Shown here piece by piece: positions 13,204 to 52,679 of a stretch of 64,000 bases of DNA. Origin of the DNA: an uncultured Gammaproteobacteria bacterium. Its GTDB lineage: Bacteria; Pseudomonadota; Gammaproteobacteria; CAISUE01. Numbering within the stretch: the stretch's first letter is position 1; each line of letters begins with the position of its first letter. The notes under the pieces are model-generated. The model made no database searches. It was not told where the DNA came from and saw only the letters and a list, made by a program, of their open reading frames with translations. Position numbers and translations under genes: made by a program. The stretch is taken from contig CAYYFQ010000001.1 of assembly GCA_964471475.1 (NCBI GenBank), positions 2,019 through 66,018 on the forward strand, in the 5' to 3' direction.

Positions 13204-16034
13204 TGATTGGTTATACTCTCCTCTTCCCTTGTGGGAGAGGGGGCTGAAACGCAAAGCGTCGAAGGAGAACTTGGTGCAGGCTCTACAAACACCGCACGAG
13301 GAAAGTTGGCTGCAACCAACGCTTCATAGGAGATAATATCTGGTTCTGGTATCGGTAATTTTGTTTCAATATACGCTATGATTTTGTTTACCATTCCTTT
13401 TAATTCGAGACTAGTTTCTGAGTCTTTCACAGCTAATAAACTTGTGTGTAACTCTCTCAGAGCATCCTCATGATGCCCCCTGAACAATCCTAAGAGTGCA
13501 TCATAAATTATTTGATGGTTGGGAGGGCGCATAGATAAATCAACCGTAAACTCTCCTCTCATGAAACCAGTGATAATCGCATGAGTAGAACGTCGATCTA
13601 CTAATTCCCAATAAAGTAAATGCACAAATAATAAAAAATTAAGTCTGCACAATTTCTTTAAGCTTAGATCACAATATTGAATACCTTTCTCTCTGTCTGC
13701 TGTTGCTTCTGCGCTTCCTACGATAGTGTGCACAAAAGTGGAAGCCACAGTAAAATCAGTAGCTACTAAATCTGCATTACTGTAAAGCATGGCTGAAAAC
13801 AAGGATAAGTATTCGTCATCAGTTGCTATTTTATAATGTGTTTGTTGAACATTTAAGGATTCTATCAACACCCTTCTGGCATTTTGACCATGTGGAGTGT
13901 TTACGAACTCGAGTAATTCTACAATTAATTTTTTAGTATCAGGGTGGTAGAAGCAATTTCTGTTACCGCTGTAACCTGCATCTTCTTCAGCCAACATAAA
14001 AAAAATACTTAGCCTATAAGGAGATGCCTTCATGGGTGTAAACACGCACTCCGCCCAGCGATTCTTATGCTGTATTCCAACGTTCTCCCATATACATCCC
14101 ATCACATAGTGAAAAAGATTTCTTTCAGGATTAGTACGCGCTATGCCGTATACGTCCCCTAACAAATTCTCAAAAACATGTTTTTCTTCTCTATTCGAAG
14201 AATTTTTTAAATCAAAAAAACCCTCTGTAAATTTTTCCATCATGGAAACTACATCTGCTTTTCGCGCAAAATCAAAAAATTTTTCCAAAAGAATTTTGCT
14301 TTTGTCTTGCATTTCAAATATCGATTTAATAAGTGCTTTGGTAAAATTAGGAAAATCAGAGGGAACCGGAAATACCTTAACAATTTCTGCCGCACATACA
14401 GATAAAAATTTTTCAAAAAATGGCGTCGTATTTTCGCCCTCTACAATCTCACATAATTTATTCCATAAGTCTTTTTGTATTCCCCTTAAAACTTCAGGAT
14501 CCATCCTCTCATAGAATTCTACTATTGCGTCCGATTTATAATTTCTCACTAATCGACTGAATTTCTGAAGGATATCCTTCAAGGCTCTAGGTTCTATAAC
14601 ACCTTCTCTATCATTGGGTGAATGTATTGCCACCGATGAAACAATGGGTGTATGTGACCCAGAAGAAGCAGCAGAAGGGCTTTGCGCGGGCTTAGGTGAT
14701 TTATTTTTTTTCGGTGGGTGCTTTTTTTTTCTTCGTAATGTTTTTTCATTACTAAATGAAGGGGAGGCTCCGGGTTCTTCTCGAGCTGATTCAATCACAT
14801 CTGGAGCTGGTGGTTTTGGAGATGATTCACTTGCAGGTGCAGCAGGTGGTTCTGAAGGTGATTTAATCACAGAAGGAGCTAAAGTCACTTTATCGCTTGA
14901 GCCCGAAGGTTTCTCCAGTTTGATGCGTGAGAGCGCTGCGGCTCCAGAAGTGCTCGCACTACTTTGTTCAACTGGAGTTTCTGATACAAGACCGAAAGAC
15001 TCTTTTATAAACTTGCATAATTTTTCTAAATTTTTCACATAGTTTCGTTGATTTTCTCTTTCATCGATCGGCTCCCTAACTCGTTTATATTTAAAACGAA
15101 ACGTATCCAGCTTTCTTGCTTTTTTTACATGATGATCACGTTCTTTATCTTTTTTCAGATATTGATGATAGTCTTCGCCATCACATTCCACACCAAACTT
15201 TAAATGTTGTTCTTTGTACGTAATGGTGAAAACCGCATCCAACCAAGTATTAAAAAATTGATCCTCTTCCACATAATCTACACTTATATTAAACGGTAGT
15301 GTTTTGAGCAAATCCTTTTTCAAAGTTTTCATTAACTCTCTTTGCCACGGAGGTGGTTCTTGGTGTCTCTCCGATAAACGTACTAACCAAGAAGAAGGGA
15401 CTTCTCTATACAATTCTGCATCAAGATAACACCCTGTTAATTTTGACAGAACGGGAAGCGGTAGCCTTTCTGCCATCTCCTCTAAGTCTGCTTGACACCA
15501 ATTTTTCTGATAGGCTAAGAAAGATGCACTGACTGCTCTTAGTAGGTTTTGCATCACAGCGTTTAAATGAGCCGGCTCAGCCAAAACATACCATTCGCCC
15601 AATTTAAAAATCATGGATAGATCGAAATCTAGCGTCTTATTAAAATTCTCCAACCAGTTTTCACAGGATTGATGTCCGTGAGAAGGGGGTTGATGGTGGT
15701 GAGATCGCGCTGGAAGATATTCCAACCATTTTAAAAAATTATTTTCATTACCATAATGAATCATAATTCCAAAAAAAGTCAGGCCTCCGCCCTCAAGTGA
15801 GATCACCGTTGAAGTTAGTAAAGCATACATCTCTTCAGGACGATGTTGAAAAACATGCGCAATGATATCCAGCAACACATCCAAGTTATCAGAGGTCAGT
15901 TGTAGTGAAACTAATTCTGTAATGAAGGTAACGGCTTGTGCTACTACGCTCGCATCTGCTGCTCTCGGCAAAACGCGAATAGCACGAACATCCTCAGGAC
16001 TTTTGATAGTATTAAGATTAAGTACAGGCCACAC
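13185..16034 (-). CDS. large hypothetical protein, effector-like, with a possible DUF559/Vsr-like nuclease motif and an NLS-like basic cluster
   Basis: Uninterrupted 949-aa ORF with no signal peptide. It contains LDAVF...KFGVECDGEDYH...KERDHHVKKARKLDTFRFKY, a central Pro/Ser/Lys-rich linker with RRKKKHPPKKNKSPKP, and a helical C-terminal half. The last ~28 codons run through REP unit 13216-13269. Confidence 0.6.
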   Translation of the reverse strand: MWPVLNLNTIKSPEDVRAIRVLPRAADASVVAQAVTFITELVSLQLTSDNLDVLLDIIAHVFQHRPEEMYALLTSTVISLEGGGLTFFGIMIHYGNENNFLKWLEYLPARSHHHQPPSHGHQSCENWLENFNKTLDFDLSMIFKLGEWYVLAEPAHLNAVMQNLLRAVSASFLAYQKNWCQADLEEMAERLPLPVLSKLTGCYLDAELYREVPSSWLVRLSERHQEPPPWQRELMKTLKKDLLKTLPFNISVDYVEEDQFFNTWLDAVFTITYKEQHLKFGVECDGEDYHQYLKKDKERDHHVKKARKLDTFRFKYKRVREPIDERENQRNYVKNLEKLCKFIKESFGLVSETPVEQSSASTSGAAALSRIKLEKPSGSSDKVTLAPSVIKSPSEPPAAPASESSPKPPAPDVIESAREEPGASPSFSNEKTLRRKKKHPPKKNKSPKPAQSPSAASSGSHTPIVSSVAIHSPNDREGVIEPRALKDILQKFSRLVRNYKSDAIVEFYERMDPEVLRGIQKDLWNKLCEIVEGENTTPFFEKFLSVCAAEIVKVFPVPSDFPNFTKALIKSIFEMQDKSKILLEKFFDFARKADVVSMMEKFTEGFFDLKNSSNREEKHVFENLLGDVYGIARTNPERNLFHYVMGCIWENVGIQHKNRWAECVFTPMKASPYRLSIFFMLAEEDAGYSGNRNCFYHPDTKKLIVELLEFVNTPHGQNARRVLIESLNVQQTHYKIATDDEYLSLFSAMLYSNADLVATDFTVASTFVHTIVGSAEATADREKGIQYCDLSLKKLCRLNFLLFVHLLYWELVDRRSTHAIITGFMRGEFTVDLSMRPPNHQIIYDALLGLFRGHHEDALRELHTSLLAVKDSETSLELKGMVNKIIAYIETKLPIPEPDIISYEALVAANFPRAVFVEPAPSSPSTLCVSAPSPTREEESITNHYFLET
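13216..13269. repeat. REP-like element, family B, single unit
   Basis: ctctcctcttcccttgtgggagagggggctgaaacgcaaagcgtcgaaggagaa shares the ctcYccttgtggg and cgcaaagcg cores with 5823-5940. Confidence 0.6.
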
Positions 16035-16411: not shown

Positions 16412-17830
16412 ATGGAAAACAGAAGCAACCTAAAAAAAGGGGTTAGTTATATGGTAAATAAGATAGCAACAGGTGAGAAACGCCTATTATCTGCAGAATT
16501 GAAGATAACCTTGTGGTCACTTTTTGACCTTTTGACTCGACTTGAAAGATTACAAGATAAATCCATCCGCTTGAAATCTGAAGCCAATCTATCTAAGAAA
16601 ATTGAAGGCAAACGCGAAATAGCAGTAGATTTGACTCGTGAAGCACAACAATTAGAGAGCCTCAATATCGCTCTACACGACCCTCTATCATTGGCTGATC
16701 TTCCCCTCTCTGATGACAAAATACTACAACAAATTTATCGCGCTCAATTTATTCTTTATCAGCATTATTTAAAAGAGTTCCTTCTCATTTTAATTAAAGA
16801 TGAGACGGGCGAAAGTACAGAGATCGAAAAGAAGTTACTTGAAAAAAACATACTGCCTACATTAGTTAATCGATTAGAGATGGGGGATTTGCAAGAAATA
16901 CTTCTTGCAATTGATCCGCCTGGAATTGAGCGGCTTGATAAGATATTCTTACCACAAGACTCCCTCTCAACTCATTCACACTTTTTAAACAACATACAAA
17001 ATGCACGCAAGGCTTCTACCTTTTCTTCCATGCAACCTCCATTGTCCAGCCCATCAAGCATTTCAAGTGGTAGTCGCCGTGAGTTTTTCCCCATATTTTC
17101 CCTAAATGCTAGCAAAAAAAACTCTCGCACTCCTATTAAATTAGCAGACCTCCAAACTACGCCGGCTTTAATTTTATCTTTTAATCCATCGCGTTTAAAA
17201 GAAAAATACGATATTCGCAAAGCATTAGCCACGATGAGTGCAAAGGAAGCACAAAGAATGTTAACGCAGATCGCACAATCCATTGCTGATGCTAATGAGC
17301 CAAAGCAAATAGACGCTTTTTTAGCATTTTGTAACCCAAATTCAACATGGGTATGGGCACGATTCGGTTTTCTTTATAACCCTTTCGCAGCGCTTCAGAG
17401 AGAAGATGACAAAAGTAATCTCCATATATTTTTAAATAAACTCGACATCAGAATTCTAGTGCCTCTGTTAATCATGCGACCTACCTTATTAACAAGTCTT
17501 GTCACTGAAACAAAGCAAGTATCCCTGCCCCACAAGAGAGGCAATTCACAGAAACAACTTGATACCTCGATGGCAATGACGGTCGCAACTGCCCTGTTCG
17601 CCCGCATCACAGACGCTCATTCAGGCTTCACCAGTCCAACAATAGAAGAACTACAAGAGCTTGCCACGAACCCTGAAAAGCTTAAAGAAAAATTACGCGC
17701 TTACGATAGCAACTTGTTACCAACAGGCTCTCTATACAAATCCAACTCTTCTCAAGCAAAAACATCGGTACCTTCCGAAATAGATTCAGGAGAACCAGCG
17801 CGGAAAGGTCCAGGAGCGTTCACCCAATAA
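16412..17830 (+). CDS. hypothetical protein (ORFan, effector-like)
   Basis: 472-aa ORF with no signal peptide, a coiled-coil-like N-terminus and Ser/Pro-rich patches. An alternative start is at 16451 (MVNK). The 3' end overlaps the convergent permease gene by 45 nt. Confidence 0.55.
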   Translation: MENRSNLKKGVSYMVNKIATGEKRLLSAELKITLWSLFDLLTRLERLQDKSIRLKSEANLSKKIEGKREIAVDLTREAQQLESLNIALHDPLSLADLPLSDDKILQQIYRAQFILYQHYLKEFLLILIKDETGESTEIEKKLLEKNILPTLVNRLEMGDLQEILLAIDPPGIERLDKIFLPQDSLSTHSHFLNNIQNARKASTFSSMQPPLSSPSSISSGSRREFFPIFSLNASKKNSRTPIKLADLQTTPALILSFNPSRLKEKYDIRKALATMSAKEAQRMLTQIAQSIADANEPKQIDAFLAFCNPNSTWVWARFGFLYNPFAALQREDDKSNLHIFLNKLDIRILVPLLIMRPTLLTSLVTETKQVSLPHKRGNSQKQLDTSMAMTVATALFARITDAHSGFTSPTIEELQELATNPEKLKEKLRAYDSNLLPTGSLYKSNSSQAKTSVPSEIDSGEPARKGPGAFTQ

Positions 17831-40135: not shown

Positions 40136-40270
40136 TATAGCCTTTAACATTTAGCTTCATACGGTGTTGCAAGTTCATTCGCCTTCGGTCATGTACGTCT
40201 ATGTACACTCCCTCGACTCATTCACTTGCGCCTTGTCTGAAACTAAATCTTAAAGGCTGTAACTACAGCT
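40131..40270. mobile_element. MITE-like element, family F
   Basis: Arms of about 50 bp are inverted repeats at roughly 75% identity: agctgtatagcctttaacatttagcttcatac... versus ...gtctgaaactaaatcttaaaggctgtaactacagct. It overlaps the GNAT stop codon at 40263-40265. Confidence 0.65.
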
Positions 40271-40919
40271 CTGCAAGCGTTGGAGAAGGCTCGCCGCCAG
40301 TCTCAACCTTGGCAGGAAGAGGACTCGAATTGGATCCGGATGCAGCAGATACACCTCCTGCGTGAGGCGCCTCCGAATTAAACATGGTGTCAACTGTTTT
40401 CAGCGTAGATACTTGCACAGTACGCTCTTCTAATGCTGGGCTCTTCAAATCTAGTTTAAAACCAATATGCGAATCGGTAAAGCCAATTTTTTTATAAAAA
40501 TGTTGTGCTTCTGGTCTTAATTTATTAGTGGTAAGTTGCACAAATCGACACTCTCTTTCTTTTGCTCTCTGAATTGCCCACTGAACAAGTTCTACACCTA
40601 ATCCTTGCCCTCTGCATTCGTTTTTAATACGAACCCCCTCTAATTGTGCTCGCGTAGCTCCTTGAAAAGTTAGCGTCGTCATATAAGTGATTTGTAAAGT
40701 TCCGATAACTTCATGTTTATCATTTTCCATGACTATTAATTCGTTATTTCTATCATCTACTATTTTGTCAAATGCCTTGTAATAACACTCATCAACCTTA
40801 AGAGTATCCGAATAAGTTTCTCTTGTGCTTCCCAGCACATCATCAGAAAGCAATTGAACAATAACGGGTATATCATGACGTGTCGCTAACCTAACATTAT
40901 ATCCTTCTAACATAAACAC
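40263..40919 (-). CDS. GNAT family N-acetyltransferase with a ~60-aa low-complexity C-terminal tail
   Basis: Acetyl-CoA-binding motif RGQGLGVELVQWAIQRA plus VQLTTNK...FYKKIGF. The tail after about residue 158 is Ser/Ala/Gly/Pro-rich. Confidence 0.8.
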   Translation of the reverse strand: MFMLEGYNVRLATRHDIPVIVQLLSDDVLGSTRETYSDTLKVDECYYKAFDKIVDDRNNELIVMENDKHEVIGTLQITYMTTLTFQGATRAQLEGVRIKNECRGQGLGVELVQWAIQRAKERECRFVQLTTNKLRPEAQHFYKKIGFTDSHIGFKLDLKSPALEERTVQVSTLKTVDTMFNSEAPHAGGVSAASGSNSSPLPAKVETGGEPSPTLAEL

Positions 40920-40942
40920 CTCACTGAATAATAAAAATTTAA

Positions 40943-41932
40943 TTAGGCAACCTTAGCTTTTATGTACCCTTCTGCAAATTTTTTCTTGTCCGCATCGGTT
41001 TGTTTATAAAGCAGCCCCCTTTGTAACCACCGGCTCATATTTTTCATTGATCCGCGGCGGCCATGCATTACCCCCCCAACATCTTTTACTCCCCAGCCAT
41101 TATTAAAAATAAGCATATCTCCTTTTTGTAACTTGATCGAAGTATAATCATCAGGATGTAATTGCAAGTGCTCAAATTTAGCAAATAACATATCTAAAAC
41201 TTTTTGTGCACGTTCAGTAACTGCCTCTAATCGAGCTTTATTTTCTACAAGTCGGGTTCTAAAACAATTTTCCGATTCTTTAGTAATTAAAGAAAATGCC
41301 GTTTTATTTATACAACCAGAAGCTGGCCCTGTATGAATTATAAACTCGGGGCATCTCATGATATCGATAGCTTCTTGTGGCAAGGAGTACACTAGCTTAT
41401 TCAAGTCAAGAAAAGTGGTAAATGCATTATCATCACCTTCTAAACACAATAAAGTTTGGAAGTCAGGTGGAGTTAAGTGATATGCAAGCTCTGTATGAAA
41501 TGTAAGGGGTTCTGCACCAAAGCTCGACTGCTCTTTTTCTCGCCCCACAACAGGCGTCACATCATGAATTAATCTCCCTCCTCGTTCATTCGGGTTCGTA
41601 TAAAGCTTAGTACCAAGTAGTTGAGCCATCCCCAATATCACATTTTCGCTAACCGAAGTTTTAACTTTAATTCGATCGTCGATATTATTTCCGGGAGGAA
41701 CTATAGAATCTATAGGCATCCCAGAAAGATGAATAATAGAGGGTACAGCGTTTTCTCTCATTGATCTTAACGTGGTATGCACTTCTGTCGGTAAAAACTC
41801 GCTTAACTTCTCCGCCATTAGTTGCATAAGGTATTCTGGCTGCGTATATGGATCAAATGAGAATTCATTTACGAATTGATTAAACTCTTTTGCAAAATTT
41901 GGGATTGTGTAACTTATAACTTCTGGATGCAT
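40943..41932 (-). CDS. clavaminate-synthase-like Fe(II)/2-oxoglutarate-dependent oxygenase (amino-acid hydroxylase-like)
   Basis: 329-aa ORF with an HxE motif (LTFHTELAYH), a distal His (GVMHGRRG) and a downstream Arg (SRWLQR), the arrangement seen in the VioC/AsnO/TauD-type fold. The assignment rests on motif pattern only. Confidence 0.6.
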   Translation of the reverse strand: MHPEVISYTIPNFAKEFNQFVNEFSFDPYTQPEYLMQLMAEKLSEFLPTEVHTTLRSMRENAVPSIIHLSGMPIDSIVPPGNNIDDRIKVKTSVSENVILGMAQLLGTKLYTNPNERGGRLIHDVTPVVGREKEQSSFGAEPLTFHTELAYHLTPPDFQTLLCLEGDDNAFTTFLDLNKLVYSLPQEAIDIMRCPEFIIHTGPASGCINKTAFSLITKESENCFRTRLVENKARLEAVTERAQKVLDMLFAKFEHLQLHPDDYTSIKLQKGDMLIFNNGWGVKDVGGVMHGRRGSMKNMSRWLQRGLLYKQTDADKKKFAEGYIKAKVA

Positions 41933-42015
41933 AAAATACTCCTCAGTTTAAATATAGCAAGTTCATCTCTTCGTTTTTTCTATTATTTTTTAAACAAGAA
42001 ATTTTAGAATTTTAA

Positions 42016-42048
42016 GGCGCCTCATAAGTTAAAAAATTTGTGAGGCGC
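42016..42048 (-). terminator. candidate terminator hairpin after acnA
   Basis: ggcgcctca...(16 nt)...tgaggcgc forms an 8-9 bp GC-rich stem starting 23 nt after the acnA stop. The U-tract is poor. Confidence 0.4.
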
Positions 42049-42070
42049 ATATTTAATTATTAGCGAATTA

Positions 42071-44779
42071 TCAACACGCCGTAGTATTCGCGCCAATAAT
42101 TTGTCGCAACACATACGGTAAAATACCACCTTGATTAAAATAATCGATTTCAATTTCGGTGTCTAACCGCAAAATTAATGGGATTTTGCGGAGGATTTGA
42201 CCTTCGTCGCTTTTTATTACCAAAGTCACTTCCTTATTAACATCAAGTTTTTCCAAGCCCAAAATATCAAATATTTCACTTCCTGTTAGTTTTAATGACT
42301 CGACACTTTCACCTTCTTTAAATTGACATGGCAAAACTCCCATACCAATTAAATTGCTTCGGTGTATTCTTTCAAAACTCTTAGCAACAACTGCTTTCAC
42401 TCCTAAAAGCTGAGTACCTTTTGCAGCCCAGTCTCTAGAACTTCCGGTACCATATTCTTCACCAGCAAAAATAATAGTGGGAATATTATTTTTTTGATAA
42501 AGCATTGCTGCATCGTAAATGCTCATCACTTCATTGTTATATTTGCAAAGCGTGTATCCACCTTCAATATCAGGAACCATTCTATTTTTTATCCGAACGT
42601 TTGAGAAAGTTCCGCGCATCATAACTTCATGATGACCTCGACGAGCACCAAAACTATTAAAATCTACAGGGGATATTCCATGATGCTGTAAATATTCACC
42701 AGCAGGTGATTTTGGGCTAATACTACCCGCAGGGCTGATATGGTCTGTTGTAATAGAATCCCCTAAAATTGCTAATGCTCGTGCATTTAAAATATTATCC
42801 ACTTTTTCTGGGTGCATTGAAAAGCCATCAAAAAATGGTGGTTCTGCTACATAAGTGGAATCACCATCCCATTGATATATTGCCAAGTCAGTAGAGGGGA
42901 TTTTTTCCCAAAGAATATTATTTTTATTCAAGTTACCATATAATTCTTTGTAAGTTTTGCTATCTTTTGCATAAAGAAGCGCATCTTCAATTTCTTTGGA
43001 AGTTGGCCATATATCTTTCAAAAATACAGGATTACCTTCCGTATCAGTACCTAACGGATCTTTGTCCATGTTAATTCTCACCGTACCTGCTAGCGCAAAT
43101 GCAACCACAAGTGGTGGACTCATTAAGAAATTAGCACGAATATTAGAGTGAATACGAGCTTCAAAATTCCGATTCCCAGAAAGAACTGCGGATACAATCA
43201 TTTTATTTTTTGTAACCGTATGCTCAATAGCTTCATCTAAATCCCCAACATTACCAATGCATGTTGCGCATCCATAACCTGCGACATCGAAACCAATTTT
43301 TTCTAAAGAATCAAGAAGACCTGCTTTTTTAAGATATTCAGTAACCACTCTGGAACCGGGGGTTAAGGAAGTTTTTATATAAGGCTTCACTGTTAGACCT
43401 TTTTCACAGGCCTTTTTTGCGAGAATACCGGCTGCAACAAGCACACTAGGATTAGAAGTATTCGTGCAAGAAGTTATACCTGCAATTAAGACATCACCAT
43501 GTGCTACTTCAGTTTCTTGACCAACTACTGGTGCTTTGGCATTAATTTTTTCTTCATCTAAGCTGTAGCCATTGTTTGCAACAGACTCTCTTAAAAGCTT
43601 TTCAAAAGTTTCTTTTAATTCAGGCAAATTGATTCTATCTTGAGGGCGTTTTGGGCCTGAAACACTAGGCAATACTTTATCAAGATCGAGTTCAATTACT
43701 TGTGTATAATCGCATTCACCATCTTGCGGTATTCCAAAAAGCTTTTGCGCTTCAAAATAGTTTTTAATTTTCTCCACTTCGTCTTTTGTTCTACCTGTTT
43801 GCTCATAATAAGCGATTGTCATTTCATCTACTGGAAAAAACCCCATTGTTGCACCGTAATCAGGGGCCATGTTGGCAATTGTGGCTCTATCTTGTGCTGT
43901 CAAATGTTTTGCACCTTCACCAAAATACTCCACGATTTTCCCAACAACCTTAGCCTTTCTTAATATTTCAGTTAAAGTTAAAACCAAATCGGTTGCCGTA
44001 ACACCCTCTCTTAACTTGCCACGCAAATGAAAACCAACTACATCAGGAGTTAAGAAATAAATAGGTTGGCCAAGCATACCCGCTTCTGCTTCAATACCAC
44101 CAACACCCCATCCTACAACACCTATACCATTAACCATAGTGGTATGAGAGTCAGTACCTACCACCGTATCTGGATAATAAACGTTATTTTTGTCTGCAAA
44201 AACTCCTTTGGAAAGATATTCAAGATTTACTTGGTGAACAATTCCCACTCCGGGAGGAACAACTTCTAATTTATTAAATGCCGAAGCACCCCATTTCATA
44301 AACTTATAACGTTCTTGATTTCTACTGAATTCTAACTCCATATTTAACGCCAATGCGTTGTGTTTTCTTGTATAGTTAGTTTGCACTGAGTGGTCAATGA
44401 CTAAACTCACAGGCACTAAGGGTTCAATAACTTCGGGATTAATACCCATACCTTTGACTGTTCCTCGCATCGCAGCAAGATCAGCTAACAATGGCACTCC
44501 TGTATAGTCCTGCAAAACGATTCTTGCAACAACAAAAGGAATTTCGTTCACTCTTTTACCTTTTGCTTCCCAGTTGGCGAGGTGATGAATGTGTTCTTTT
44601 GTGATTTTTTTTCCATCATAGTTGCGAAGCGCTGATTCAAGAATTATTCTTAAACTCACCGGCAATCTAGAAATATTCCCTAAACCATTTTTTTCAAGCA
44701 GTGGCAATGAAAAGAACTTACCCATTTCTCCAGAACTAGTGGCTTTAAATTCACTCATACAATTAAACGCATCATTCAT
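42071..44779 (-). CDS. acnA: aconitate hydratase A
   Basis: 902-aa ORF with Fe-S cluster ligand regions ([25 protein letters not shown]) and a C-terminal swivel domain. AGGA lies 10 nt upstream of the ATG, and the start is only 16 nt after the stop of the upstream adenylase gene. Confidence 0.95.
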
Positions 44780-44795
44780 AAAAAATATTCCTATG

Positions 44796-46337
44796 TTAAG
44801 TTAAATAATTTATTAATGCCTTTCTATCTATCTTGCCATTGGCATTTAATGGCATTTTTTCTAAAAAAAGAATTTGGTTTGGAACCATGTAGCTAGGAAC
44901 CAAATTTCGTAGAGATTCTAAAATTTGGGTAGAACTTGTTTCTTCCCCGGTTAAAAAAGCTACTAAACCCGCGCATGTGCCATCAATTATTGGCCACCCC
45001 AACACTACCGCATCAATTATGCCAGGGGTTTTCCTAATTATCCATTCAATTTCTGCAAGCTCTACTCTGTAGCCATTTACTTTAATTTGCTGATCCGCTC
45101 TTCCCAAGTAAATAAGCTGATTATTTTTTGATAGTTTCACCAGATCGCCAGTTCTATAGTAAATTTCACCATCTTTTTCAATATGAGCAAATAGCGTTTT
45201 TTCTTTATCATCAAGATAACCTTGAAAATTTTGTGGGCCCGCAACACACAGCTCTCCAGAAAAGCCATCTTGCGTTACTTCTTTCAAGTTTTCATCTAAA
45301 ATTTTAAATTTCAAACCAGCATAAATTTCACCTATTGAAACCACTCCATTTTCGTTATTAATATGATTTAATGAATCATAGGTATAACTTGAGCAAGCTA
45401 TTGTTAATTCAGTAGGCCCATAAAGATTTTGTATAGTAGAATTAGGAGCTGCAGCTTGCCAAGTTTCTACTGCCTCAACACTCAAGGGTTCCCCGCAAAA
45501 CAAGCTCAGCCTTAAAGTAGGCATTGAATTTTCGCGTAATATATTTTTTTTACGTGCAAAATTTATTATGGATGGTACAGAAAACCAAATGGTAATTTGA
45601 TTTTCTGACACAAAAACAGATGGCGAAAGAAGCTCAATTGGTTGTGGCACACACAGAGTGGCTCCATGGCAAAACGCCATAAAAATATCAAACATTGATA
45701 AATCAAAAGTCTGATCAAAAGTTTGTGATAATTTATCGCTAGCACTAACCTTGTATTTTTCTTGGTTATAGTGAATAAAATGATTTAAGTTTCCATGAGA
45801 AATCTGGACACCTTTAGGAATGCCTGTGCTACCAGATGTAAATAAAATATATGCAGTGTCATCATTGTTTATTTTTGGAGACCCTACGTGTATATGAAAA
45901 GTATCTAGATCATTAATACAATAAATGTTTTTATATTCATTTAGTAAATCCGAATCTGAATCAACTATAATCAGCGGGTTATAAGATAATTCCTTTAAAA
46001 CGCCTCTTAATGCATGAATACTTTGTGAGTCCACTACAATCACATCTAGTTTAGCATGTTCAATTATTGACACCGTTCTTGCGACGGGAAAATTCTTGTT
46101 TAGTGGTACAAAAGTGCTTCCTAAAAGCATCGAGGCCAACGTTCCAGCATAGCTAGTTTTGCTCCTAAAGCTAAATAGACCAATGCGTTTAGGAAAGTGA
46201 CAAAGGCTTTTTATCCCTTTTGCAAATTTGAGGACTTCACTGTTTAATTCTTTATATGTCCAGGAGTTCTCACCAATCGTTAAAGCAAGAGCCTCTGAAT
46301 TATCTTCAACAACACTTAAGAATTTTTCTATTAACAT
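44796..46337 (-). CDS. stand-alone adenylation enzyme (ANL superfamily, DltA-like amino-acid/acid--carrier ligase)
   Basis: 513-aa ORF with core motifs [47 protein letters not shown] and [13 protein letters not shown]. It has no fused carrier or condensation domain. Confidence 0.85.
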
Positions 46338-46339
46338 AT

Positions 46340-47767
46340 TTAATTGCTCCCGCTCACTTTCGCAATATTATGTCCACTAGCGGCTTGCCCATCGCTTTTC
46401 TGTAAGTATCTAAATACAATAAATGATACGAATGTAATTCCTCCAATAGCAAAGAACGAATTATGGAGTGGCATTACATCCCCCATCGTGAGATGATTAT
46501 TAAAACCAACAAATATTTTAATTACTAAAGCACTTACAGCAACACCAAAGCACATTGATAATTGCTGTATGGCACTTGCTATACTAGTTCCTTTGCTTAC
46601 ATTGCTATCTGTTAAATCGACATAACTTAAAATATTCATACAACTAAACTGCAAAGATGTGACCAGGCCATTTACAAATACTAATAAAAGTATAATGCTG
46701 TAAGGGGTGATTTTAGTGACAAAAGCAAAAGACGCCATTGAGACCCCCACCAACATTGGATTGATAATTAAAATTTTTCTAAAGCCATATAGCTTTAAAA
46801 GTTTTTTAACAAAAAATTTCATCAGTAACATAGCAATTGCTAAAGGAAAAATTAACAACCCAGAGTAAAGAGGAGATAAACCAAAACCTATTTGAAAAAG
46901 CAAAGGAAGTAAGAAAGGAATTCCTCCTATCCCTAATCTGCTCCACAAGCTACCTAAGACAGTAATTCTAAAAGTTCTAATCTTAAATACCTTAAGGTCA
47001 AAAACAGGATTTTTTGCGGTTTGATAATACCAAAAATATAGCACCAAGCAAAGTAAAGAAGAAGAAAGAATCATAAAAATAACATTGACTGACAATAGCC
47101 TTTCGCCTATAGAATCAAACCCAAATGATAATCCAGCTAATCCCACGCCAAATAAAATAAACCCTGGAACATCAAATGGTATAACATGCTCTGCTTTATA
47201 ATCTTTTACATATTTTAAAGTGAGCAACGCTCCTAATAATCCAAATGGAATGTTAACAAAAAATACCCAACGCCAAGAAGAAAATGTGGTAATAGCACCA
47301 CCTACTACAGGGCCAAGAGCAGGGCCTATTAAAGAAGGTATAGTTGCATAATTTGTGACCCTAACCAAGTCCGATTTTGGAAAAGCTTTTAATAGAATTA
47401 ACCTACCAACAGGCATCATTAGCGCCCCGCCAAGTCCTTGCAAAATTCTGGATATAATTAGTTCTGTTAGGTTGTTTGACATCCCACAAAAGATAGAACT
47501 GAGCGTAAAAAGTAAAAGAGCCAAGGAGAACACTCTCTTTGTACCAAACTTATCGGCCATCCAACCACTAATAGGAATGAATACCGCTAGACTAAGTAAA
47601 TAGCTTGTTAAAGCAACTTTCAAACTAATAGCACTCACTTGTAAGCTTATGGCTATTTTAGGGATAGCTGTACTTACGATCGTGACATCTAATGTTTCCA
47701 TAAATAAAGCAATAGCAATTACCCAGGGAATAATAATTTTAGAAAGATCTTTCAATGTTTTTTTCAT
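46340..47767 (-). CDS. MFS transporter, DHA2 (EmrB/QacA-like, ~14 TM) family
   Basis: 475-aa ORF with about 14 hydrophobic segments and the motifs LDVTIVSTAIP and GWMADKFGTKRV. Confidence 0.85.
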   Translation of the reverse strand: MKKTLKDLSKIIIPWVIAIALFMETLDVTIVSTAIPKIAISLQVSAISLKVALTSYLLSLAVFIPISGWMADKFGTKRVFSLALLLFTLSSIFCGMSNNLTELIISRILQGLGGALMMPVGRLILLKAFPKSDLVRVTNYATIPSLIGPALGPVVGGAITTFSSWRWVFFVNIPFGLLGALLTLKYVKDYKAEHVIPFDVPGFILFGVGLAGLSFGFDSIGERLLSVNVIFMILSSSLLCLVLYFWYYQTAKNPVFDLKVFKIRTFRITVLGSLWSRLGIGGIPFLLPLLFQIGFGLSPLYSGLLIFPLAIAMLLMKFFVKKLLKLYGFRKILIINPMLVGVSMASFAFVTKITPYSIILLLVFVNGLVTSLQFSCMNILSYVDLTDSNVSKGTSIASAIQQLSMCFGVAVSALVIKIFVGFNNHLTMGDVMPLHNSFFAIGGITFVSFIVFRYLQKSDGQAASGHNIAKVSGSN

Positions 47768-47775
47768 CGTAACTA

Positions 47776-48912
47776 TTAAATATATTTACTAAGCTCTTTT
47801 CTAAGTAGTTCCGCAATAATCAATGGCTCGTTTTCTTGTAAACTTATAGGATTAACGACTAAATGATTCAGCTCTTTAAAATATTGCATAAAAACTCTGG
47901 GAGAACCTTTTAACATAATTTTGGGAATATCTGCTGCACTTGGTCCATGCCATTCTTTTGTAAATATTATAACCGCCGTAGGAACATGATGATTGACTTC
48001 ATCATGAACAATTTCAACTTTTACGCCTGGAATATTGCTTAATAGTTCCACGGTTGGCTGAAGTCTTGAGCGAAACTCTTCCAGCATTTTTTCTTCATCA
48101 CTATCAATGTATATTTTTAAAGCGGTATACAAACCTACCATATCTTCTTTTGAAACTTTATGTGGTCGTCCAATTGCGTGGTTTGGACTAGCGTTTGCCA
48201 AAGCAGCTTCCACAAGGTCTTTTCTTCCATAAAGTAGCCCGGTTGCCTGTGGTGCATGTATTAATTTCCCCCCACTCACCACAACTAAATCTGCTCCTTC
48301 TTCAATAAATCGGCGCAAGTTTGTTTTAGGTGGTAACATTGCGGCTGCATCAACAATAACCGGAAGTTTATGCTTATGGGCAATATTAACAACTTGAGGC
48401 AAGGTTAAACCAGCCGTGGAAACACGTGGGCCAAGTAAATAAGTAACCGCAACAGTTTTTTCTGTAATTGCTCCCTCCAGTTCTTCTGGTAAACACTCAT
48501 TAAAATCGCCAATATCTACAAATTTTGCACCCGTAAAAGTATACATATGGCTATAAGACCCACGATGTATCCTTTGAATAATAAGTTCATTTTTCATTCC
48601 GGTAGAATCTGGTAATCTCCTTACTTTTGCAACGTCAGCTCCTGTCATACAAGCCGCAATGGATAAAACAACACCACTTGCGGCCCCGCTAGTGACCATA
48701 CCAGCTTCGGCCCCAGTGACCTTTGCAATGTATTCTCCAATTTTTCTATTTAATTCTGCCATGCTTACAAAAGACTTAGAAGCTTCAGCAATTGCTTCAA
48801 GCACACGAGGATCCATTCGGGAACCACCATACGCACTTTTCGTGCCTCCTGCATTAATAACCGGCACCACACCGATTTCTTCATAAATTTTATTTGCTAA
48901 GCAACTAGACAC
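47776..48912 (-). CDS. SelA/DgaE-family PLP-dependent enzyme
   Basis: 378-aa ORF with INAGGT...GGS at the N-terminus and VSGGKLIHAPQATGLLYG, which resembles the SelA PLP-lysine motif (SGDKLLGGPQAG). The size fits the short DgaE-like subfamily. Confidence 0.7.
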   Translation of the reverse strand: MSSCLANKIYEEIGVVPVINAGGTKSAYGGSRMDPRVLEAIAEASKSFVSMAELNRKIGEYIAKVTGAEAGMVTSGAASGVVLSIAACMTGADVAKVRRLPDSTGMKNELIIQRIHRGSYSHMYTFTGAKFVDIGDFNECLPEELEGAITEKTVAVTYLLGPRVSTAGLTLPQVVNIAHKHKLPVIVDAAAMLPPKTNLRRFIEEGADLVVVSGGKLIHAPQATGLLYGRKDLVEAALANASPNHAIGRPHKVSKEDMVGLYTALKIYIDSDEEKMLEEFRSRLQPTVELLSNIPGVKVEIVHDEVNHHVPTAVIIFTKEWHGPSAADIPKIMLKGSPRVFMQYFKELNHLVVNPISLQENEPLIIAELLRKELSKYI

Positions 48913-48939
48913 TATATGACTCCTTTACAGAAAGATAAA

Positions 48940-50328
48940 TTATCGTTCATCAAGCAATACGTATTTTGCTTCTTTTTTACCTACATAATTTAATCGAGGG
49001 CGAATTAAAATATTGTTAGACTCTTGCTCTAGTATTTGCGCAGTCCATCCTGCCATCCTACTCATAATAAAGACAGCAATAAACATATCTTGGGGAATAC
49101 CCAAGAAGTGATAAATTACTGCGGCATAAAAATCCACATTTACATTTAAGCCATATTTTGCATGAAGCGCCATTTCAATATTGATAGCTTCAAGAATATT
49201 AAAGTATCTGGTATCACCAGATTTTACGCTAATTTGGTAAGCTAACTCTCTCATGCCTTTTGCTCTGGGGTCTTCAGTTCTATAGACACGATGCCCATAA
49301 CCGTAAATAGGGCTACCATTTTTTATTTTTGTTTGAATGTAATCGGTCGTATTTTCAGGCAAATCAATTTCGTTTAACATTTCAATTACTTTTGAAAGCG
49401 CGCCGCCATGCAAATCACCGCTGAAAGTACAAATAGCTGCAATTATAGCAGAATAAAAGTTAGCTTCTGCTCCAGTTGCCACTCTAGCAACAAAAGAAGA
49501 AGCATTAGAGCCATGATCAGCGTGCATCATCATAACTTTTTCAAGTATTTTAATATCTTCTTCCGCAGGTAACTTTTGATGAATTAAAGATAAAAAGTTT
49601 TCTGCCAAAGAAGCATTCTGGTTTATCGAGGGAATTATCTGTTTTTCTCTGGAAAGTTTTTGATACGCAATAACCAGAGGTAGTTTTGCAATTAAGCTCA
49701 ATCCAGTCTCTAAAGAGCTCTTCTCGGGGGCCTCAAGCAATGAGAACATACTCAGAAAACTCTTTAACAAATCTACATATTCTAATTGATTAAACTGAGC
49801 AATGAAGTCAATGGTTTTGTTACTTAATACTTTTTTTTTGGACAAACAAGTTTTAAAATTTATTAATTCATTTTTATTTGGCAGCTCCCCAAAGATCAGC
49901 AAATGGCAAACTTCTTCGTAGGTAGAAAACCGTACTATCTCCTCAATTGCATAACCTCGGTAAAACAGTTTTCCTTGGTCACCATCTATACTTGTTATAG
50001 TGGTATTATCAAAAAAAACACCATTTAAGCCTCGATGAATACTTTTTGTCACTTTTTGCTCATTAGCTGTAGAAGTATTCGAAGAATTTATAAATTTTTC
50101 GATCGCATTAATTGAAGTAAGTTTTAAGATCTCTTTTTCATTGATATGAATTCCGTAAATTTGTTCCAGTTTCATCATCAAGTTCACATGCCTAAATGAA
50201 TCCCACTCTGATATAGACTGGTAAGATGTCTCTCCACTTAATAGTTTTTTATCAACCCCAAGATGTTCAGAAATAAAATCATAAACATTGATTGCATCCG
50301 CTTTTTTCATTGGTTTCACCGCCCTCAT
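48940..50328 (-). CDS. carrier-protein domain fused to a citrate-synthase-family enzyme
   Basis: The N-terminal ~80 aa read VYDFISEHLGV...SISEWDSFRHVNLMMKLEQIYGI...AIEKFI (4'-phosphopantetheine carrier pattern). The remaining ~370 aa are citrate-synthase-like with MHADHGSNAS, GYGHRVYRTEDPRA and NVDFY. The start is ambiguous (Met at 50328 with AGAGGA 9 nt upstream, or Met at 50310), and the track ORF extends to 50445. Confidence 0.8.
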   Translation of the reverse strand: MRAVKPMKKADAINVYDFISEHLGVDKKLLSGETSYQSISEWDSFRHVNLMMKLEQIYGIHINEKEILKLTSINAIEKFINSSNTSTANEQKVTKSIHRGLNGVFFDNTTITSIDGDQGKLFYRGYAIEEIVRFSTYEEVCHLLIFGELPNKNELINFKTCLSKKKVLSNKTIDFIAQFNQLEYVDLLKSFLSMFSLLEAPEKSSLETGLSLIAKLPLVIAYQKLSREKQIIPSINQNASLAENFLSLIHQKLPAEEDIKILEKVMMMHADHGSNASSFVARVATGAEANFYSAIIAAICTFSGDLHGGALSKVIEMLNEIDLPENTTDYIQTKIKNGSPIYGYGHRVYRTEDPRAKGMRELAYQISVKSGDTRYFNILEAINIEMALHAKYGLNVNVDFYAAVIYHFLGIPQDMFIAVFIMSRMAGWTAQILEQESNNILIRPRLNYVGKKEAKYVLLDER

Positions 50329-50642
50329 TTTACGCATTCCTCTAACATTCACTCTCAACTCTCTAATTTTGCTTTTTTCTGCACAGTAAGACTTTTGTAA
50401 AACCGCCGACCACCTCTCTCTGGAAGCCCTAAAGCATACACACAAAAAGAGATAACGTACTTACATACAGTTATGTTTTGGTGTGGAAAAAACGCTTATC
50501 CAAGCGGGTGGAGCCTTAACCCTCAGTAGTTTGCGTCATCGAGTTGACACTTCGATTTAAACCTTGATTAGCTCATATGCAACGCTACTTTTTCGCAATG
50601 AATGTTACGAATGCAAAAAGCAATAATTTTTTTACTTTTAAA

Positions 50643-50685
50643 ATATTTAGGATAGTTGCATGCCAATATTATACACGAACTGCTG
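50643..50685. repeat. 43-bp direct repeat, copy S2
   Basis: atatttaggatagttgcatgccaatattatacacgaactgctg matches 40093-40135 at 37 of 43 positions in the same orientation. A minus-strand TATAAT lies at 50668-50673, and no start codon follows. Confidence 0.75.
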
Positions 50686-50716
50686 AGTTTTTTTATGCGC
50701 AGCGGCCTTTTCCCTT

Positions 50717-50953
50717 TTAAAACCACAATGTAGCGCAAGACCCAGAAAAAATTTTGTCTGTTGAAACATCAGCAGCATCAGAATCTACGGGTTGAGGCTG
50801 CATCGAAGAAACATCAGCAGTACCAGAATCTACGGGTTGGTGCTGAACAGAAGTAGCGGAATTAGATGATGGACATATTTCTTTCATTACGCTCGATACT
50901 GGTTTTTTTTGGGGGGGAGGGGGTAATTCATCAAAAAGCATACTGCGCTCCAA
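50717..50953 (-). CDS. small hypothetical protein with an internal 15-aa tandem repeat (doubtful gene)
   Basis: 78-aa ORF with PPPPQKKP encoded by a C5-T-C7-A8 tract, plus a 45-bp tandem duplication at 50763-50848 ((Q)PVDSxxADVS, two copies). No homology recognised. Confidence 0.3.
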   Translation of the reverse strand: MERSMLFDELPPPPQKKPVSSVMKEICPSSNSATSVQHQPVDSGTADVSSMQPQPVDSDAADVSTDKIFSGSCATLWF

Positions 50954-50968
50954 AATATTATTTTTTTA

Positions 50969-51132
50969 TCTAGGGCGTGTCCCTAAAGTATCGTTTGAAG
51001 CAAAAAAGAAGATAATCGAGGCAGTTTTAACGATCATCGGCGAATATTGGACATATTTAACGAGGAGGATCGTTAAAATTGAGCGATTTCGCTTCTTTTG
51101 CAGCCAAAAGATACTTTAGGGATACGCCCTAC
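50969..51132. mobile_element. MITE-like element, family C, copy 2 (intact termini)
   Basis: Terminal inverted repeats tagggcgtgtccctaaagtatc (50971-50992) and gatactttagggatacgcccta (about 51110-51131) match at 21 of 22 positions. The interior folds back on itself (ttttaacgatc/gatcgttaaaa; gaagc.aaa/tttcgcttc). Confidence 0.8.
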
Positions 51133-51338
51133 TATAACAGTTATATTGTTCTTAACATTGTCAATAATATAATAAAAGGAAATTAAATTAAAGGTAATTA
51201 AGGTATGACGACCAGAAGTCAGATGTGAAAAATATAAAATATCGTCATATTCTTAAGGAATAACGAAGATCCCCTCGAATTTACTTTCGTTAAAAAAGCT
51301 TTTACACTTCAAATTCGTATTGAGAGGTAATCCCCATT

Positions 51339-52679
51339 ATGTTTTTTTTCCATTTCCAACGACTGCAAAGAATTGAGGCGGAATATCCTGCGGCCACTAA
51401 GCTTATAGATAAGAATGTAATTGCACTTGGTATTGCTGTGATGGGATTTTTAATTAATTCTTTTACTAACATAGTACTTACACATATTCTAAGCAAAACC
51501 ACTTATGGCGATTTTTCTTTGTGCGCTAGCGTGATAGGTTTTTTAGGAAGCATTGTTTTACTTGGCAATGATCAATCTTCAATTAAATTTATTCCTAATT
51601 ATTTTAAGTCGCAAGAATATGGGTTGCTTCATGGCATTTTATTGTATTACGGTCGCTCTTTATTAATCATGACATCTCTTGTGTTATTAATTAATTTTGG
51701 CATGTATAAATTAATGCATTCCTCTTTTGCATTAGATTCTACGCGTCATCTCGTATGGAAATATTTGTGGATCATTCCCTTTGCTGGCGTCACTTCTATT
51801 TTTGCGATGTGTTTGCGAAGTTTTAAACGAGGCTTTTATGCCTTGATTACGCAAAACGTATTGCCCGGATTACTAATGATGTTTGTTATCATGATCATTT
51901 ATTATTTTAATCGACAATTATTCACACTGAATAAAATCATGTGGATTTATTTTTTAACGGTTTATTTGGCGACTGGTTTAGTTCAAATCCTGGGTTTGTT
52001 TCATATAGTTCCATGGCAAACTTTTCAACACCCCTCGGAATATAATCGCAAAATGTGGTTCACAACCGGTGTGCAATTGTTGCTATCCGCCTTGATTTAC
52101 GACGGCGAATCCTCCATTGTTAATCTCACATTAAAATTTACAGGCCACTCTTCTTCCGAAATTGGTTCATTATCCGTAGCGATGACTTTATATGTTGCCA
52201 CTTGGCTAGGCTGTAGTGCATGCAATGCAATACTAAGCCCATTAATTAGCCCAGCAGCTGCCAATAAAGACATTCCCACGCTGCAACGCTTAACAAATAT
52301 TGGAAATACGATTGTATTTGTGAGCGGATTTTTATTATGTATTTGCTTTGCATTATTTGGAAAACATTATCTTGCTTGGTTTGGAAAGGAGTATGTCGAT
52401 GCTTATTCTACGTTATTAATTTTAAGTTTTGGCTCATTGATTGCTTTTGCAGGCAGCATGAGCTTACCACTACTGGAGTACGCTGTTCCACCTCGGATTT
52501 TAATGAATCTCACTATGATTGGAACAGGGGTTATTGTGTTAGCAGGAATTCCTCTCTGCCATTATTTCGGAATTGAAGGCGCTGCAATGGAAGTGGTTTT
52601 AATTGAGTCAGGATTAACCTTAATTTATGCTCATCGCTTAAAGAAAGATTTAAAAATTAAGCCCTTTGGAATTATATAA
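51339..52679 (+). CDS. MOP-superfamily (Wzx/polysaccharide-biosynthesis-type) flippase-like membrane protein
   Basis: 446-aa ORF with about 12-14 TM segments. The N-terminal pattern (...NIVLTHILSKTTYGDFSLCASVIGFLGSIVLLGNDQSSIKFIP) is typical of oligosaccharide flippases. The start is uncertain. Confidence 0.6.
   Translation: MFFFHFQRLQRIEAEYPAATKLIDKNVIALGIAVMGFLINSFTNIVLTHILSKTTYGDFSLCASVIGFLGSIVLLGNDQSSIKFIPNYFKSQEYGLLHGILLYYGRSLLIMTSLVLLINFGMYKLMHSSFALDSTRHLVWKYLWIIPFAGVTSIFAMCLRSFKRGFYALITQNVLPGLLMMFVIMIIYYFNRQLFTLNKIMWIYFLTVYLATGLVQILGLFHIVPWQTFQHPSEYNRKMWFTTGVQLLLSALIYDGESSIVNLTLKFTGHSSSEIGSLSVAMTLYVATWLGCSACNAILSPLISPAAANKDIPTLQRLTNIGNTIVFVSGFLLCICFALFGKHYLAWFGKEYVDAYSTLLILSFGSLIAFAGSMSLPLLEYAVPPRILMNLTMIGTGVIVLAGIPLCHYFGIEGAAMEVVLIESGLTLIYAHRLKKDLKIKPFGII

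Follow-up and report, generated by a model that had tools for sequence, protein, structure and literature searches.

Citrate synthase (CS) is a textbook acyl-CoA enzyme; its short-type (type II) citrate/2-methylcitrate synthases include GltA, CitZ and PrpC (PF00285, TIGR01800). Stand-alone adenylases that load a small partner carrier are known from AlmE–AlmF, which acts in lipid A glycylation in V. cholerae, and from DltA–DltC, which acts in D-alanylation. Here we describe a gene that brings these two types of system together. In a 64,000-nucleotide stretch of DNA from an uncultured Gammaproteobacteria bacterium (CAISUE01; GenBank assembly GCA_964471475.1, contig CAYYFQ010000001.1, positions 2,019 to 66,018; hereafter the window), the minus-strand gene at 48940..50328 encodes a domain resembling acyl carrier protein (ACP) fused to a short-type citrate synthase (ACP-CS), and a stand-alone adenylase is encoded in the same gene cluster. 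The trio of adenylase, carrier and citrate synthase is widespread and uncharacterised, and it probably starts a small-molecule pathway by joining a carrier-bound amino acid to oxaloacetate.

Short-type citrate synthases have the same fold as ACP-CS and every one of its catalytic and oxaloacetate-binding residues, and unfused bacterial CSs are 40–47% identical to it; ACP-CS differs in its carrier domain, its dedicated adenylase, a fixed phenylalanine (F302) and a predicted aminoacyl-thioester donor in place of acyl-CoA. PrpC takes an α-substituted donor and works with AcnD and PrpF, which parallels the aconitase found in most ACP-CS clusters and the PrpF found in one of them (L001). The window itself departs from the PrpC–AcnD–PrpF methylcitrate module: Its aconitase is AcnA-type rather than AcnD, and it holds no PrpF. 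AlmE–AlmF resembles the present system in having a full-length homologous adenylase with the Leu236/Cys301 pocket and a loaded partner carrier, and DltA–DltC in pairing a homologous stand-alone adenylase (DltA NCBIfam model, 297 bits) with a small carrier. In those two systems the carrier hands over its cargo to a membrane acyltransferase, whereas here it is fused to a C–C bond-forming enzyme; the ACP-CS carrier is also of a different kind, AcpP-like with a W-D-S-x-x-H motif.

Four further systems offer partial parallels. Citrate lyase (CitDEF) uses carrier-bound acetyl and citryl thioesters in a reaction that forms or consumes oxaloacetate, but CitD carries another prosthetic group and lacks the PP-binding fold, CitE is not of the CS family, and the physiological direction is cleavage. 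Phosphinothricin biosynthesis combines phosphinomethylmalate synthase with an aconitase-type isomerase and yields a glutamate analogue against which the GNAT enzyme PAT/Bar provides self-resistance. Its combination of CS-like enzyme, aconitase and GNAT recalls the window, whose GNAT weakly matches ArsN1; there, however, acetyl-CoA is the donor and a phosphinate analogue of oxaloacetate the acceptor, whereas the window has no phosphonate genes and the unusual partner is the donor. Canonical nonribosomal peptide synthetases (NRPSs), built as adenylation–thiolation–condensation or –thioesterase (A-T-C/TE), share with two relatives (P0200, P0228) the order A-T-X with a Stachelhaus-type A domain; X here is a CS predicted to form a C–C bond and to hydrolyse, rather than a condensation or thioesterase domain. 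Fungal alkylcitrate synthases (maleidride, squalestatin) likewise place the CS family in secondary metabolism, joining an unusual thioester to oxaloacetate with a dehydratase next in line. These enzymes act as separate proteins, their assays used an acyl-CoA (2-decenoyl-CoA), and another enzyme, a hydrolase, is required to free the chain from the polyketide synthase carrier (PMC9890510). They differ from ACP-CS in having no fused carrier and no amino-acid donor. In the open-access literature and bioRxiv, we found no characterised ACP-CS member and no mention of the adenylase code described below, which agrees with the remark in the preliminary description of this DNA that the architecture is not known from characterised enzymes.

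The gene and its parts are as follows.

48940..50328, minus strand: ACP–citrate synthase fusion gene, 462 amino acids plus stop, ATG at 50328 behind AGAGGA
50077..50301, minus strand: carrier (ACP-like) domain, residues 10–84, four helices (NCBIfam, family profile, AlphaFold, Foldseek)
50197..50199, minus strand: codon of Ser44, predicted 4'-phosphopantetheine attachment site (W42-D43-S44-F-R-H47; alignments and profile)
50032..50076, minus strand: flexible linker, residues 85–99 (predicted local distance difference test, pLDDT, <50; length and sequence variable across homologues)
48994..50031, minus strand: citrate synthase domain, PF00285, residues 100–445 (Pfam, 50-sequence alignment)
49408–49410, 49291–49293 and 49132–49134, minus strand: codons of the catalytic CS residues H307, H346 and D399, respectively
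Within the CS domain, minus strand: oxaloacetate-binding residues H272, R355, R424 and R443 (50-sequence alignment)
49423–49425, minus strand: codon of the clade-specific CS residue F302

The mechanically called open reading frame extends over 48940..50445 (minus), and the likeliest start is the ATG at 50328, with an AGAGGA Shine–Dalgarno sequence 9 nt upstream; ATG 50337 and ATG 50310 are alternatives. The preliminary description had given the coordinates 48940–50328 correctly, without the strand, and had allowed for a true start downstream of the carrier region. That possibility is ruled out: All three candidate ATG codons lie upstream of the carrier domain, and the region is in frame in at least 81 relatives.

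Three kinds of evidence converge on the carrier assignment. At the sequence level, the first 96 residues taken alone score below the PF00550 gathering threshold (E=0.0065; 17.1 bits against 20.8), precomputed PF00550 matches are present on several homologues, and the NCBIfam ACP models NF002148 (E=4.4e-10) and TIGR00517 (E=2.5e-8) match the window domain. A profile built from 38 homologous N-terminal domains aligns end to end with solved AcpP-type ACPs (E=1e-11) and places the family serine on their DSL attachment serine; the CitD family is absent from the Pfam matches of the N-terminal domain at E up to 10. At the level of predicted structure, the full-length AlphaFold model (pLDDT 89.4; predicted template-modelling score, pTM, 0.87) folds residues 10–84 into a four-helix bundle (pLDDT 84–91) and leaves residues 85–99 disordered, as a 15-residue linker between carrier and CS. 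The isolated domain is modelled at pLDDT 93.9, and its best Foldseek matches in the PDB are acyl carrier proteins (AcpP; TM-score 0.85–0.87, root-mean-square deviation 1.2–1.4 Å, probability 1.00). Ser44 (residue 34 in the domain-only model) is the first residue of helix II. Finally, mean column identity is higher in the carrier domain (54%) than over the whole protein (37%), and the alignment of 38 sequences shows no variation at Trp42, Ser44 or His47 (W-D-S-x-x-H). By predicted fold and serine placement, the N-terminal region is thus a 4'-phosphopantetheine carrier, with its modification and loading predicted. The carrier domain proposed in the preliminary description is upheld by both profile and structure; conservation of the serine among orthologues, which had been set beforehand as one of the tests that could refute it, is borne out by the invariance of Ser44 and by the motif in at least 81 relatives.

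The remainder of the protein is a complete citrate synthase domain. PF00285 matches at E=1.3e-103 (347.2 bits against a cut-off of 27), with residues 100–445 spanning the full 357-position model, and the closest solved structures are the archaeal and bacterial short-type citrate synthases 6ABX, 1VGP, 1IOM and 1AJ8 (E=1e-75 to 1e-67). Among NCBIfam subfamilies, TIGR01800 (2-methylcitrate synthase/citrate synthase II) comes nearest, at 361 bits below its cut-off of 421.3, and the protein stays below the cut-offs of all CS equivalog models. It belongs to the CS and carrier-protein folds and to no curated CS equivalog. H272, H307, H346, D399, R355, R424 and R443 are invariant in the 50-sequence alignment, and we take them to be equivalent to His238, His274, His320, Asp375, Arg329, Arg401 and Arg421' of the pig enzyme, respectively. 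By its residue complement the domain therefore appears catalytically intact, as proposed earlier. The motifs GHRVY (H346) and VDFY (D399) had been read correctly, but the histidine of HADHG (H272), previously counted as catalytic, is an oxaloacetate ligand; the equivalent of catalytic His274 is H307, in the motif LHGGA.

The fusion is a property of a family rather than of one genome. In 81 of the best 120 relatives from a collection of 5.8 billion proteins, the CS domain is preceded by the W-x-S-x-x-H motif, and three more are variant or truncated calls. The fusion, whose frequency and taxonomic spread the preliminary description had asked for, is thus present in at least 81 of these relatives, across many phyla. 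These include Bacillota, Actinomycetota, Cyanobacteria, Chloroflexota, Pseudomonadota and others (at least six phyla), with named members in Paenibacillus dendritiformis, Clostridium botulinum, Metabacillus, Nostoc, Fischerella, Ktedonosporobacter, Streptomyces and Vibrio splendidus; further members occur in metagenome-assembled genomes of Thermoanaerobaculia (relatives search) and Silvanigrellaceae (genome scan). Against 1.84 billion cluster representatives, the carrier profile gives 1,051 matches at E<1e-10. Of the top 150, ~47 are full ACP-CS proteins and ~8 truncated ones, the rest being mostly free-standing carriers of 70–110 amino acids. An exact look-up of the window protein (P0001) in a contig index returned no record. 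The public entry P0022, a 429-amino-acid "citrate (Si)-synthase [Fischerella sp.]", has its annotated start within the carrier domain (MLKLTSIAAIREY...), so that the public gene call truncates the fusion.

Several relatives carry additional domains. The adenylase is fused in three proteins, as A-ACP-CS (P0200, P0228) and as ACP-CS-A (P0182). P0160 (916 amino acids) is ACP-CS-DUF6025, and a kinase-ACP-CS group (661–665 amino acids; P0006–P0008, P0011, P0016 and L023 10001–11998) has an extra N-terminal APS-kinase-like P-loop domain.

A genome scan with seven N-terminal domain sequences also returned 13 loci (L009–L021) with free-standing YQSI[SA]EWD carriers, in hosts that include Flavobacterium, Lachnospiraceae, Methylocystaceae and SAR324. 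Most of these have a distantly related AMP-binding gene (22–27% identity) within a few kilobases, which fits the pairing of WDS-type carriers with stand-alone adenylases described in the preliminary description. They represent a broader, apparently uncharacterised WDS-type carrier/adenylase family.

The partner adenylase is encoded in the same cluster.

44796..46337, minus strand: stand-alone adenylase (AlmE/DltA/IdnL7-like; PF00501, PF13193), code DLFFLCLIAK, predicted glycine (or alanine) loader of Ser44

It scores 308 bits against TIGR01733, just below the cut-off of 317, and lies below the cut-offs of the DltA equivalogs TIGR01734 (288.7 vs. 559.85 bits) and NF003417 (297 vs. 476 bits); the AlmE structure 4OXI matches it over its full length (E=7e-79). 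The comparison covered the following contexts, 11 of them independent: the window; L001 (contig from a metagenome); L002/L003 (C. botulinum); L004 (Paenibacillus); L005 (Silvanigrellaceae); L006/L023 (Fischerella); L007, L008 (Streptomyces); L022 (Vibrio); L024 (contig of an NCBI assembly); and, both from sequencing-run assemblies, L025 and L026/L027. An orthologous adenylase, 37–48% identical to that of the window, is present in all 11. This linkage, together with the three fused proteins, identifies the neighbouring adenylase as the true partner, and the core A-domain motifs, Asp235 and Lys517 complete the profile of a stand-alone adenylase and carrier pair.

The specificity code is more conserved than the enzyme that carries it. 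Its register was anchored on a GrsA fragment, which validates it by giving back DAWTIAAICK, the canonical code for Phe. Although the adenylases average 43% identity, 10 complete stand-alone enzymes and the three fused A domains all read DLFFLCLIAK; the exceptions are L005, a partial gene, and L026, a decayed copy reading DFFFLCLISK. The pocket is small, with an entirely hydrophobic lining, and the retained Asp235 and Lys517 would mark an α-amino-acid substrate. In the PDB, the pocket segment is matched best by IdnL7 (6AKD; Gly, L-Ala, L-Ser), the uncharacterised NRPS entry 8K4R and AlmE (4OXI; Gly), with DltA lower. Read from the alignment, the AlmE code is DLHLFCLIAK, which has seven of 10 residues in common with DLFFLCLIAK, including Leu236 and Cys301. 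A review credits these two residues with limiting AlmE to glycine (PMC11253843). On the strength of this AlmE-like pair and the 7/10 match, the predicted substrate is most likely glycine and, less likely, alanine.

The genes around ACP-CS form a compact cluster.

47776..48912, minus strand: pyridoxal 5'-phosphate (PLP)-dependent enzyme, SelA/DgaE-like, fold type I (Pfam, NCBIfam); 27 bp past the end of ACP-CS, with conserved counterparts in L025 and L026
46340..47767, minus strand: major facilitator superfamily (MFS) transporter, probable exporter (Pfam); copies 54–57% identical in L024, L025 and L026
42071..44779, minus strand: AcnA-type aconitase, cluster-associated copy (Pfam, NCBIfam)
42017..42048, no strand assigned: palindromic hairpin with a 14-bp stem between aconitase and TauD (sequence)
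40943..41932, minus strand: Fe(II)/2-oxoglutarate dioxygenase of the TauD family, nearest the amino-acid β-hydroxylases GntD and VioC; L025 copy 78% identical, same position
40263..40919, minus strand: GNAT N-acetyltransferase, weak best match ArsN1; L025 copy 70% identical, same position

The order is ACP-CS, PLP enzyme, MFS, adenylase and AcnA (gaps of 2–27 bp), followed by the hairpin, TauD and GNAT. The hairpin is a possible terminator or attenuator that would divide the cluster into two transcription units, and the GNAT is a possible self-protection or tailoring enzyme. Housekeeping genes flank the whole, with XseA at one end and Ppa, Ddl and a TrhO-like gene at the other. The same seven-gene order recurs in L025 and, partly decayed, in L026/L027 (6178–7038, 12808–13766), where the PLP enzyme is short (286 amino acids), TauD lies in fragments of 75 and 34 amino acids and GNAT is split. 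The flanks of these copies differ, which indicates a transferable cluster.

Comparison of window positions 40263–50328 with L025 962–11034 gives uneven identities: Acn 86%, TauD 78%, GNAT 70%, PLP 64% and MFS 57%, against only 45% for the adenylase, whose code is nonetheless identical, and 41% for ACP-CS. The two ACP-CS proteins fall in different sub-lineages, their nearest relatives being P0002 (67%) and P0035 (83%), respectively. Judged from these values, the pattern points either to an A/ACP-CS pair that has been exchanged or to fast co-evolution. The aconitase scores above the AcnA cut-off (1282 vs. 945 bits) and below that of AcnD (749 vs. 1420 bits). It belongs to the cluster: Its only close relatives (85–86%) are the copies in L025 and L026/L027, and housekeeping AcnAs follow at 64–65%.

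A second, commoner cluster type contains A, ACP-CS, aconitase, DUF6025 and an enolase-superfamily protein, often also a luciferase-like monooxygenase, ATP-grasp ligases and PrpF or PhzF. Across the 11 contexts, aconitase is present in eight and DUF6025 (PF19490; e.g., L001 16425–17885, L004 15860–17314 and L022 14009–15535) in six; PrpF occurs in L001 only and not in the window. DUF6025 has no Pfam clan match, no PDB relative and no mention in the open-access literature. In the Fischerella (F. muscicola) cluster, kinase-ACP-CS is followed by A and by two genes of the TauD family, and aconitase is absent. Neither a thioesterase nor a condensation enzyme was found in the window-type clusters (the window and L025) or the Fischerella cluster.

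Beside the ACP-CS operon lies an upstream intergenic spacer of ~900 bp (region 50446–52679) that holds no Rfam element, and the Rfam scan of the whole window returned no match. Beyond the spacer is a divergent 446-amino-acid membrane-protein reading frame with a weak Polysacc_synt/MOP-flippase-like match (E=1e-4), which might be a second exporter or unrelated. Genes for a Vut_1 (YhhQ-like) transporter and an HTH_3-type regulator adjoin ACP-CS clusters of two types (L001 8346–9809; L025 11425–13013). Elsewhere in the window, the reading frames 13185–16034 (minus, 949 amino acids) and 16412–17830 (plus, 472 amino acids) have no Pfam match at E≤1e-5. As to the host, the PNPase of the window shares 75–79% identity with proteins from Gammaproteobacteria metagenome-assembled genomes and ~64% with those of mixed orders, whereby Legionellales, first assumed from a GC content of ~38%, was dropped; LolA and BamB confirm that the chromosome is Gram-negative.

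Of the donors considered in the preliminary description, we favour the aminoacyl-S-carrier, likeliest glycyl, over an acyl donor or a tethered product. In this proposal an aminoacyl-S-carrier (glycyl, possibly alanyl) would replace acetyl-CoA as the CS nucleophile in an A/T/CS unit, and we give it about an even chance. The argument rests on the fusion itself, the A-T-CS order, the small-amino-acid code, and the intact condensation/hydrolysis and oxaloacetate sites. It draws further on the window-type and Fischerella clusters, which have no unloading enzyme, and on the aconitase, which needs a free tricarboxylate. A tricarboxylate with an amino-acid head also fits the neighbours, given the aconitase in most contexts and the origin of all the window's tailoring enzymes in amino-acid-handling families (VioC/GntD-like, SelA/DgaE-like and GNAT).

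The predicted sequence of events would begin with a host phosphopantetheinyl transferase converting Ser44 to the holo form. Judging from its pocket residues, the adenylase would then activate a small α-amino acid, likeliest glycine and less likely alanine, and load it on the carrier as a thioester. The flexible 15-residue linker would let the aminoacyl-S-pantetheine arm reach into the CS site that otherwise takes acyl-CoA, either in cis or from one subunit of the dimer to the other. There D399 and H307, both present, may enolise the thioester at Cα, and the enolate would attack the keto group of oxaloacetate, held by H272, H346, R355, R424 and R443. The same site would hydrolyse the thioester, as in an ordinary CS, regenerating the holo-carrier and freeing an amino-tricarboxylate; with glycine this product would be 2-aminocitrate, i.e., 3-carboxy-3-hydroxyglutamate. 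The AcnA-type aconitase may then isomerise or dehydrate the product to a glutamate-like amino acid, which could be tailored or detoxified by the GNAT, the PLP enzyme and the hydroxylase of VioC/GntD type and exported by the MFS protein. A glutamate-skeleton aminocitrate would suit a GNAT with a weak match to the arsinothricin-resistance enzyme ArsN1.

Several observations weigh against an aminoacyl-S-carrier donor. The fused and unfused CS domains are as similar to each other (48.5% identity) as fused domains are among themselves (47%), with the unfused set being phylogenetically narrow, and the only clade-specific changes in the acyl pocket of fused CSs are F302 (81/81) and L306. R99 and R350, presumably the counterparts of the CoA-phosphate-binding Arg46 and Arg324 of the pig enzyme, are still conserved in the fused clade, so that use of free acetyl- or propionyl-CoA is possible. 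In citrate synthases, both binding energy and domain closure depend on the CoA nucleotide, which is missing from a carrier arm. We know of no precedent in the CS family for a free α-ammonium group beside the enolate. A neighbour-joining tree of CS domains does not cleanly separate fused from unfused members and is compatible with a single origin of the fusion or with several. Basic positions 108, 117, 208, 332, 335 and 391 are conserved in the nearest unfused CSs, again a narrow set, and relaxed in the fused clade; together with the fixed F302 they give a weak hint toward a carrier-borne donor. The L024 contig (A, ACP-CS, MFS) had been considered as a minimal self-sufficient cassette, a candidate that was dropped, as the contig ends 290 bp past the MFS gene.

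The conserved CoA-binding arginines and the essentially unchanged active site bear most directly on the rival that survives best, namely that the neighbours are merely co-localised. An ordinary acetyl-CoA-dependent CS would then supply citrate and, through the aconitase, aconitate or isocitrate, with glycyl-S-ACP serving other enzymes that join or modify: DUF6025 or ATP-grasp proteins elsewhere, and GNAT, the PLP enzyme or TauD in the window. The presence of DUF6025 in six of 11 contexts, once fused behind ACP-CS (P0160), is compatible with another carrier-dependent enzyme, and TauD-family hydroxylases of carrier-bound amino acids, such as SyrP, are known. Yet window-type and Fischerella clusters have no DUF6025 and no recognisable transferase, condensation enzyme or thioesterase for unloading; the A-ACP-CS order (P0200, P0228) puts the CS where an NRPS domain acts on the loaded thioester; and a housekeeping-type supply enzyme fused to a carrier across at least six phyla is hard to explain. 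On balance we regard co-localisation as unlikely.

A further alternative is an aminolysis route, in which citryl-CoA made from acetyl-CoA and oxaloacetate is captured by the amine of glycyl-S-ACP. The product, N-citryl-glycyl-S-ACP, would be a citryl-amino-acid block as in carboxylate siderophores. Citryl-CoA is a genuine CS intermediate by the established mechanism, many clusters contain enolase-superfamily genes like N-succinyl-amino-acid racemases, and the Paenibacillus cluster adjoins FecCD/ABC iron-uptake genes. The product would remain tethered, however, in a window cluster with no release enzyme; an amide on one arm fits poorly with an aconitase that needs a free tricarboxylate, and no clade-specific residue points to a second substrate channel. 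We rank this route below co-localisation and consider it improbable.

A tethered tricarboxylate, with citrate, aconitate or isocitrate loaded onto the carrier by the adenylase for transfer, has a parallel in fumonisin biosynthesis, where Fum10 and Fum14 load tricarballylate, and would accommodate the co-occurrence of CS, aconitase, adenylase and carrier. It is very improbable here: The adenylase keeps Asp235, which binds the α-amino group, its small hydrophobic AlmE/DltA-like pocket offers no basic residue that could hold additional carboxylates, and the window cluster has no unloading enzyme. A mis-assembled or accidental fusion, or a decayed functionless carrier, for which the sub-threshold PF00550 score of the window sequence could be cited, is effectively refuted by conservation: At least 81 of the 120 closest relatives, from many phyla and independent assemblies, have the fusion, with invariant Ser, Trp and His, a high-confidence structure prediction and a partner adenylase that is always present.

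Returning to the aminoacyl-S-carrier donor, its stronger form is that A-T-CS constitutes a new NRPS-like module in which the CS joins a glycyl thioester enolate to oxaloacetate and releases the product by hydrolysis; we hold this tentatively, at a little short of even. If true, it would provide a PLP-independent route to an α-amino-β-hydroxy tricarboxylate (aminocitrate). Aminocitrate would then be the starting compound for glutamate-like antimetabolites or metallophores, a family both widespread and uncharted, and the cluster aconitase would be either a pathway enzyme or a resistant copy of the target.

ACP-CS is found in at least two distinct cluster types and in culturable bacteria such as Paenibacillus dendritiformis, Clostridium botulinum, Streptomyces, Vibrio splendidus, Nostoc and Fischerella. 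Public annotation records it as a plain "citrate/2-methylcitrate synthase", a label under which genome mining overlooks the clusters and which can skew reconstructions of metabolism. If the carrier-donor reading holds, the Claisen/aldol chemistry of the citrate synthase fold would extend to tethered aminoacyl donors, and NRPS-like logic would gain a new type of release and C–C-forming domain.

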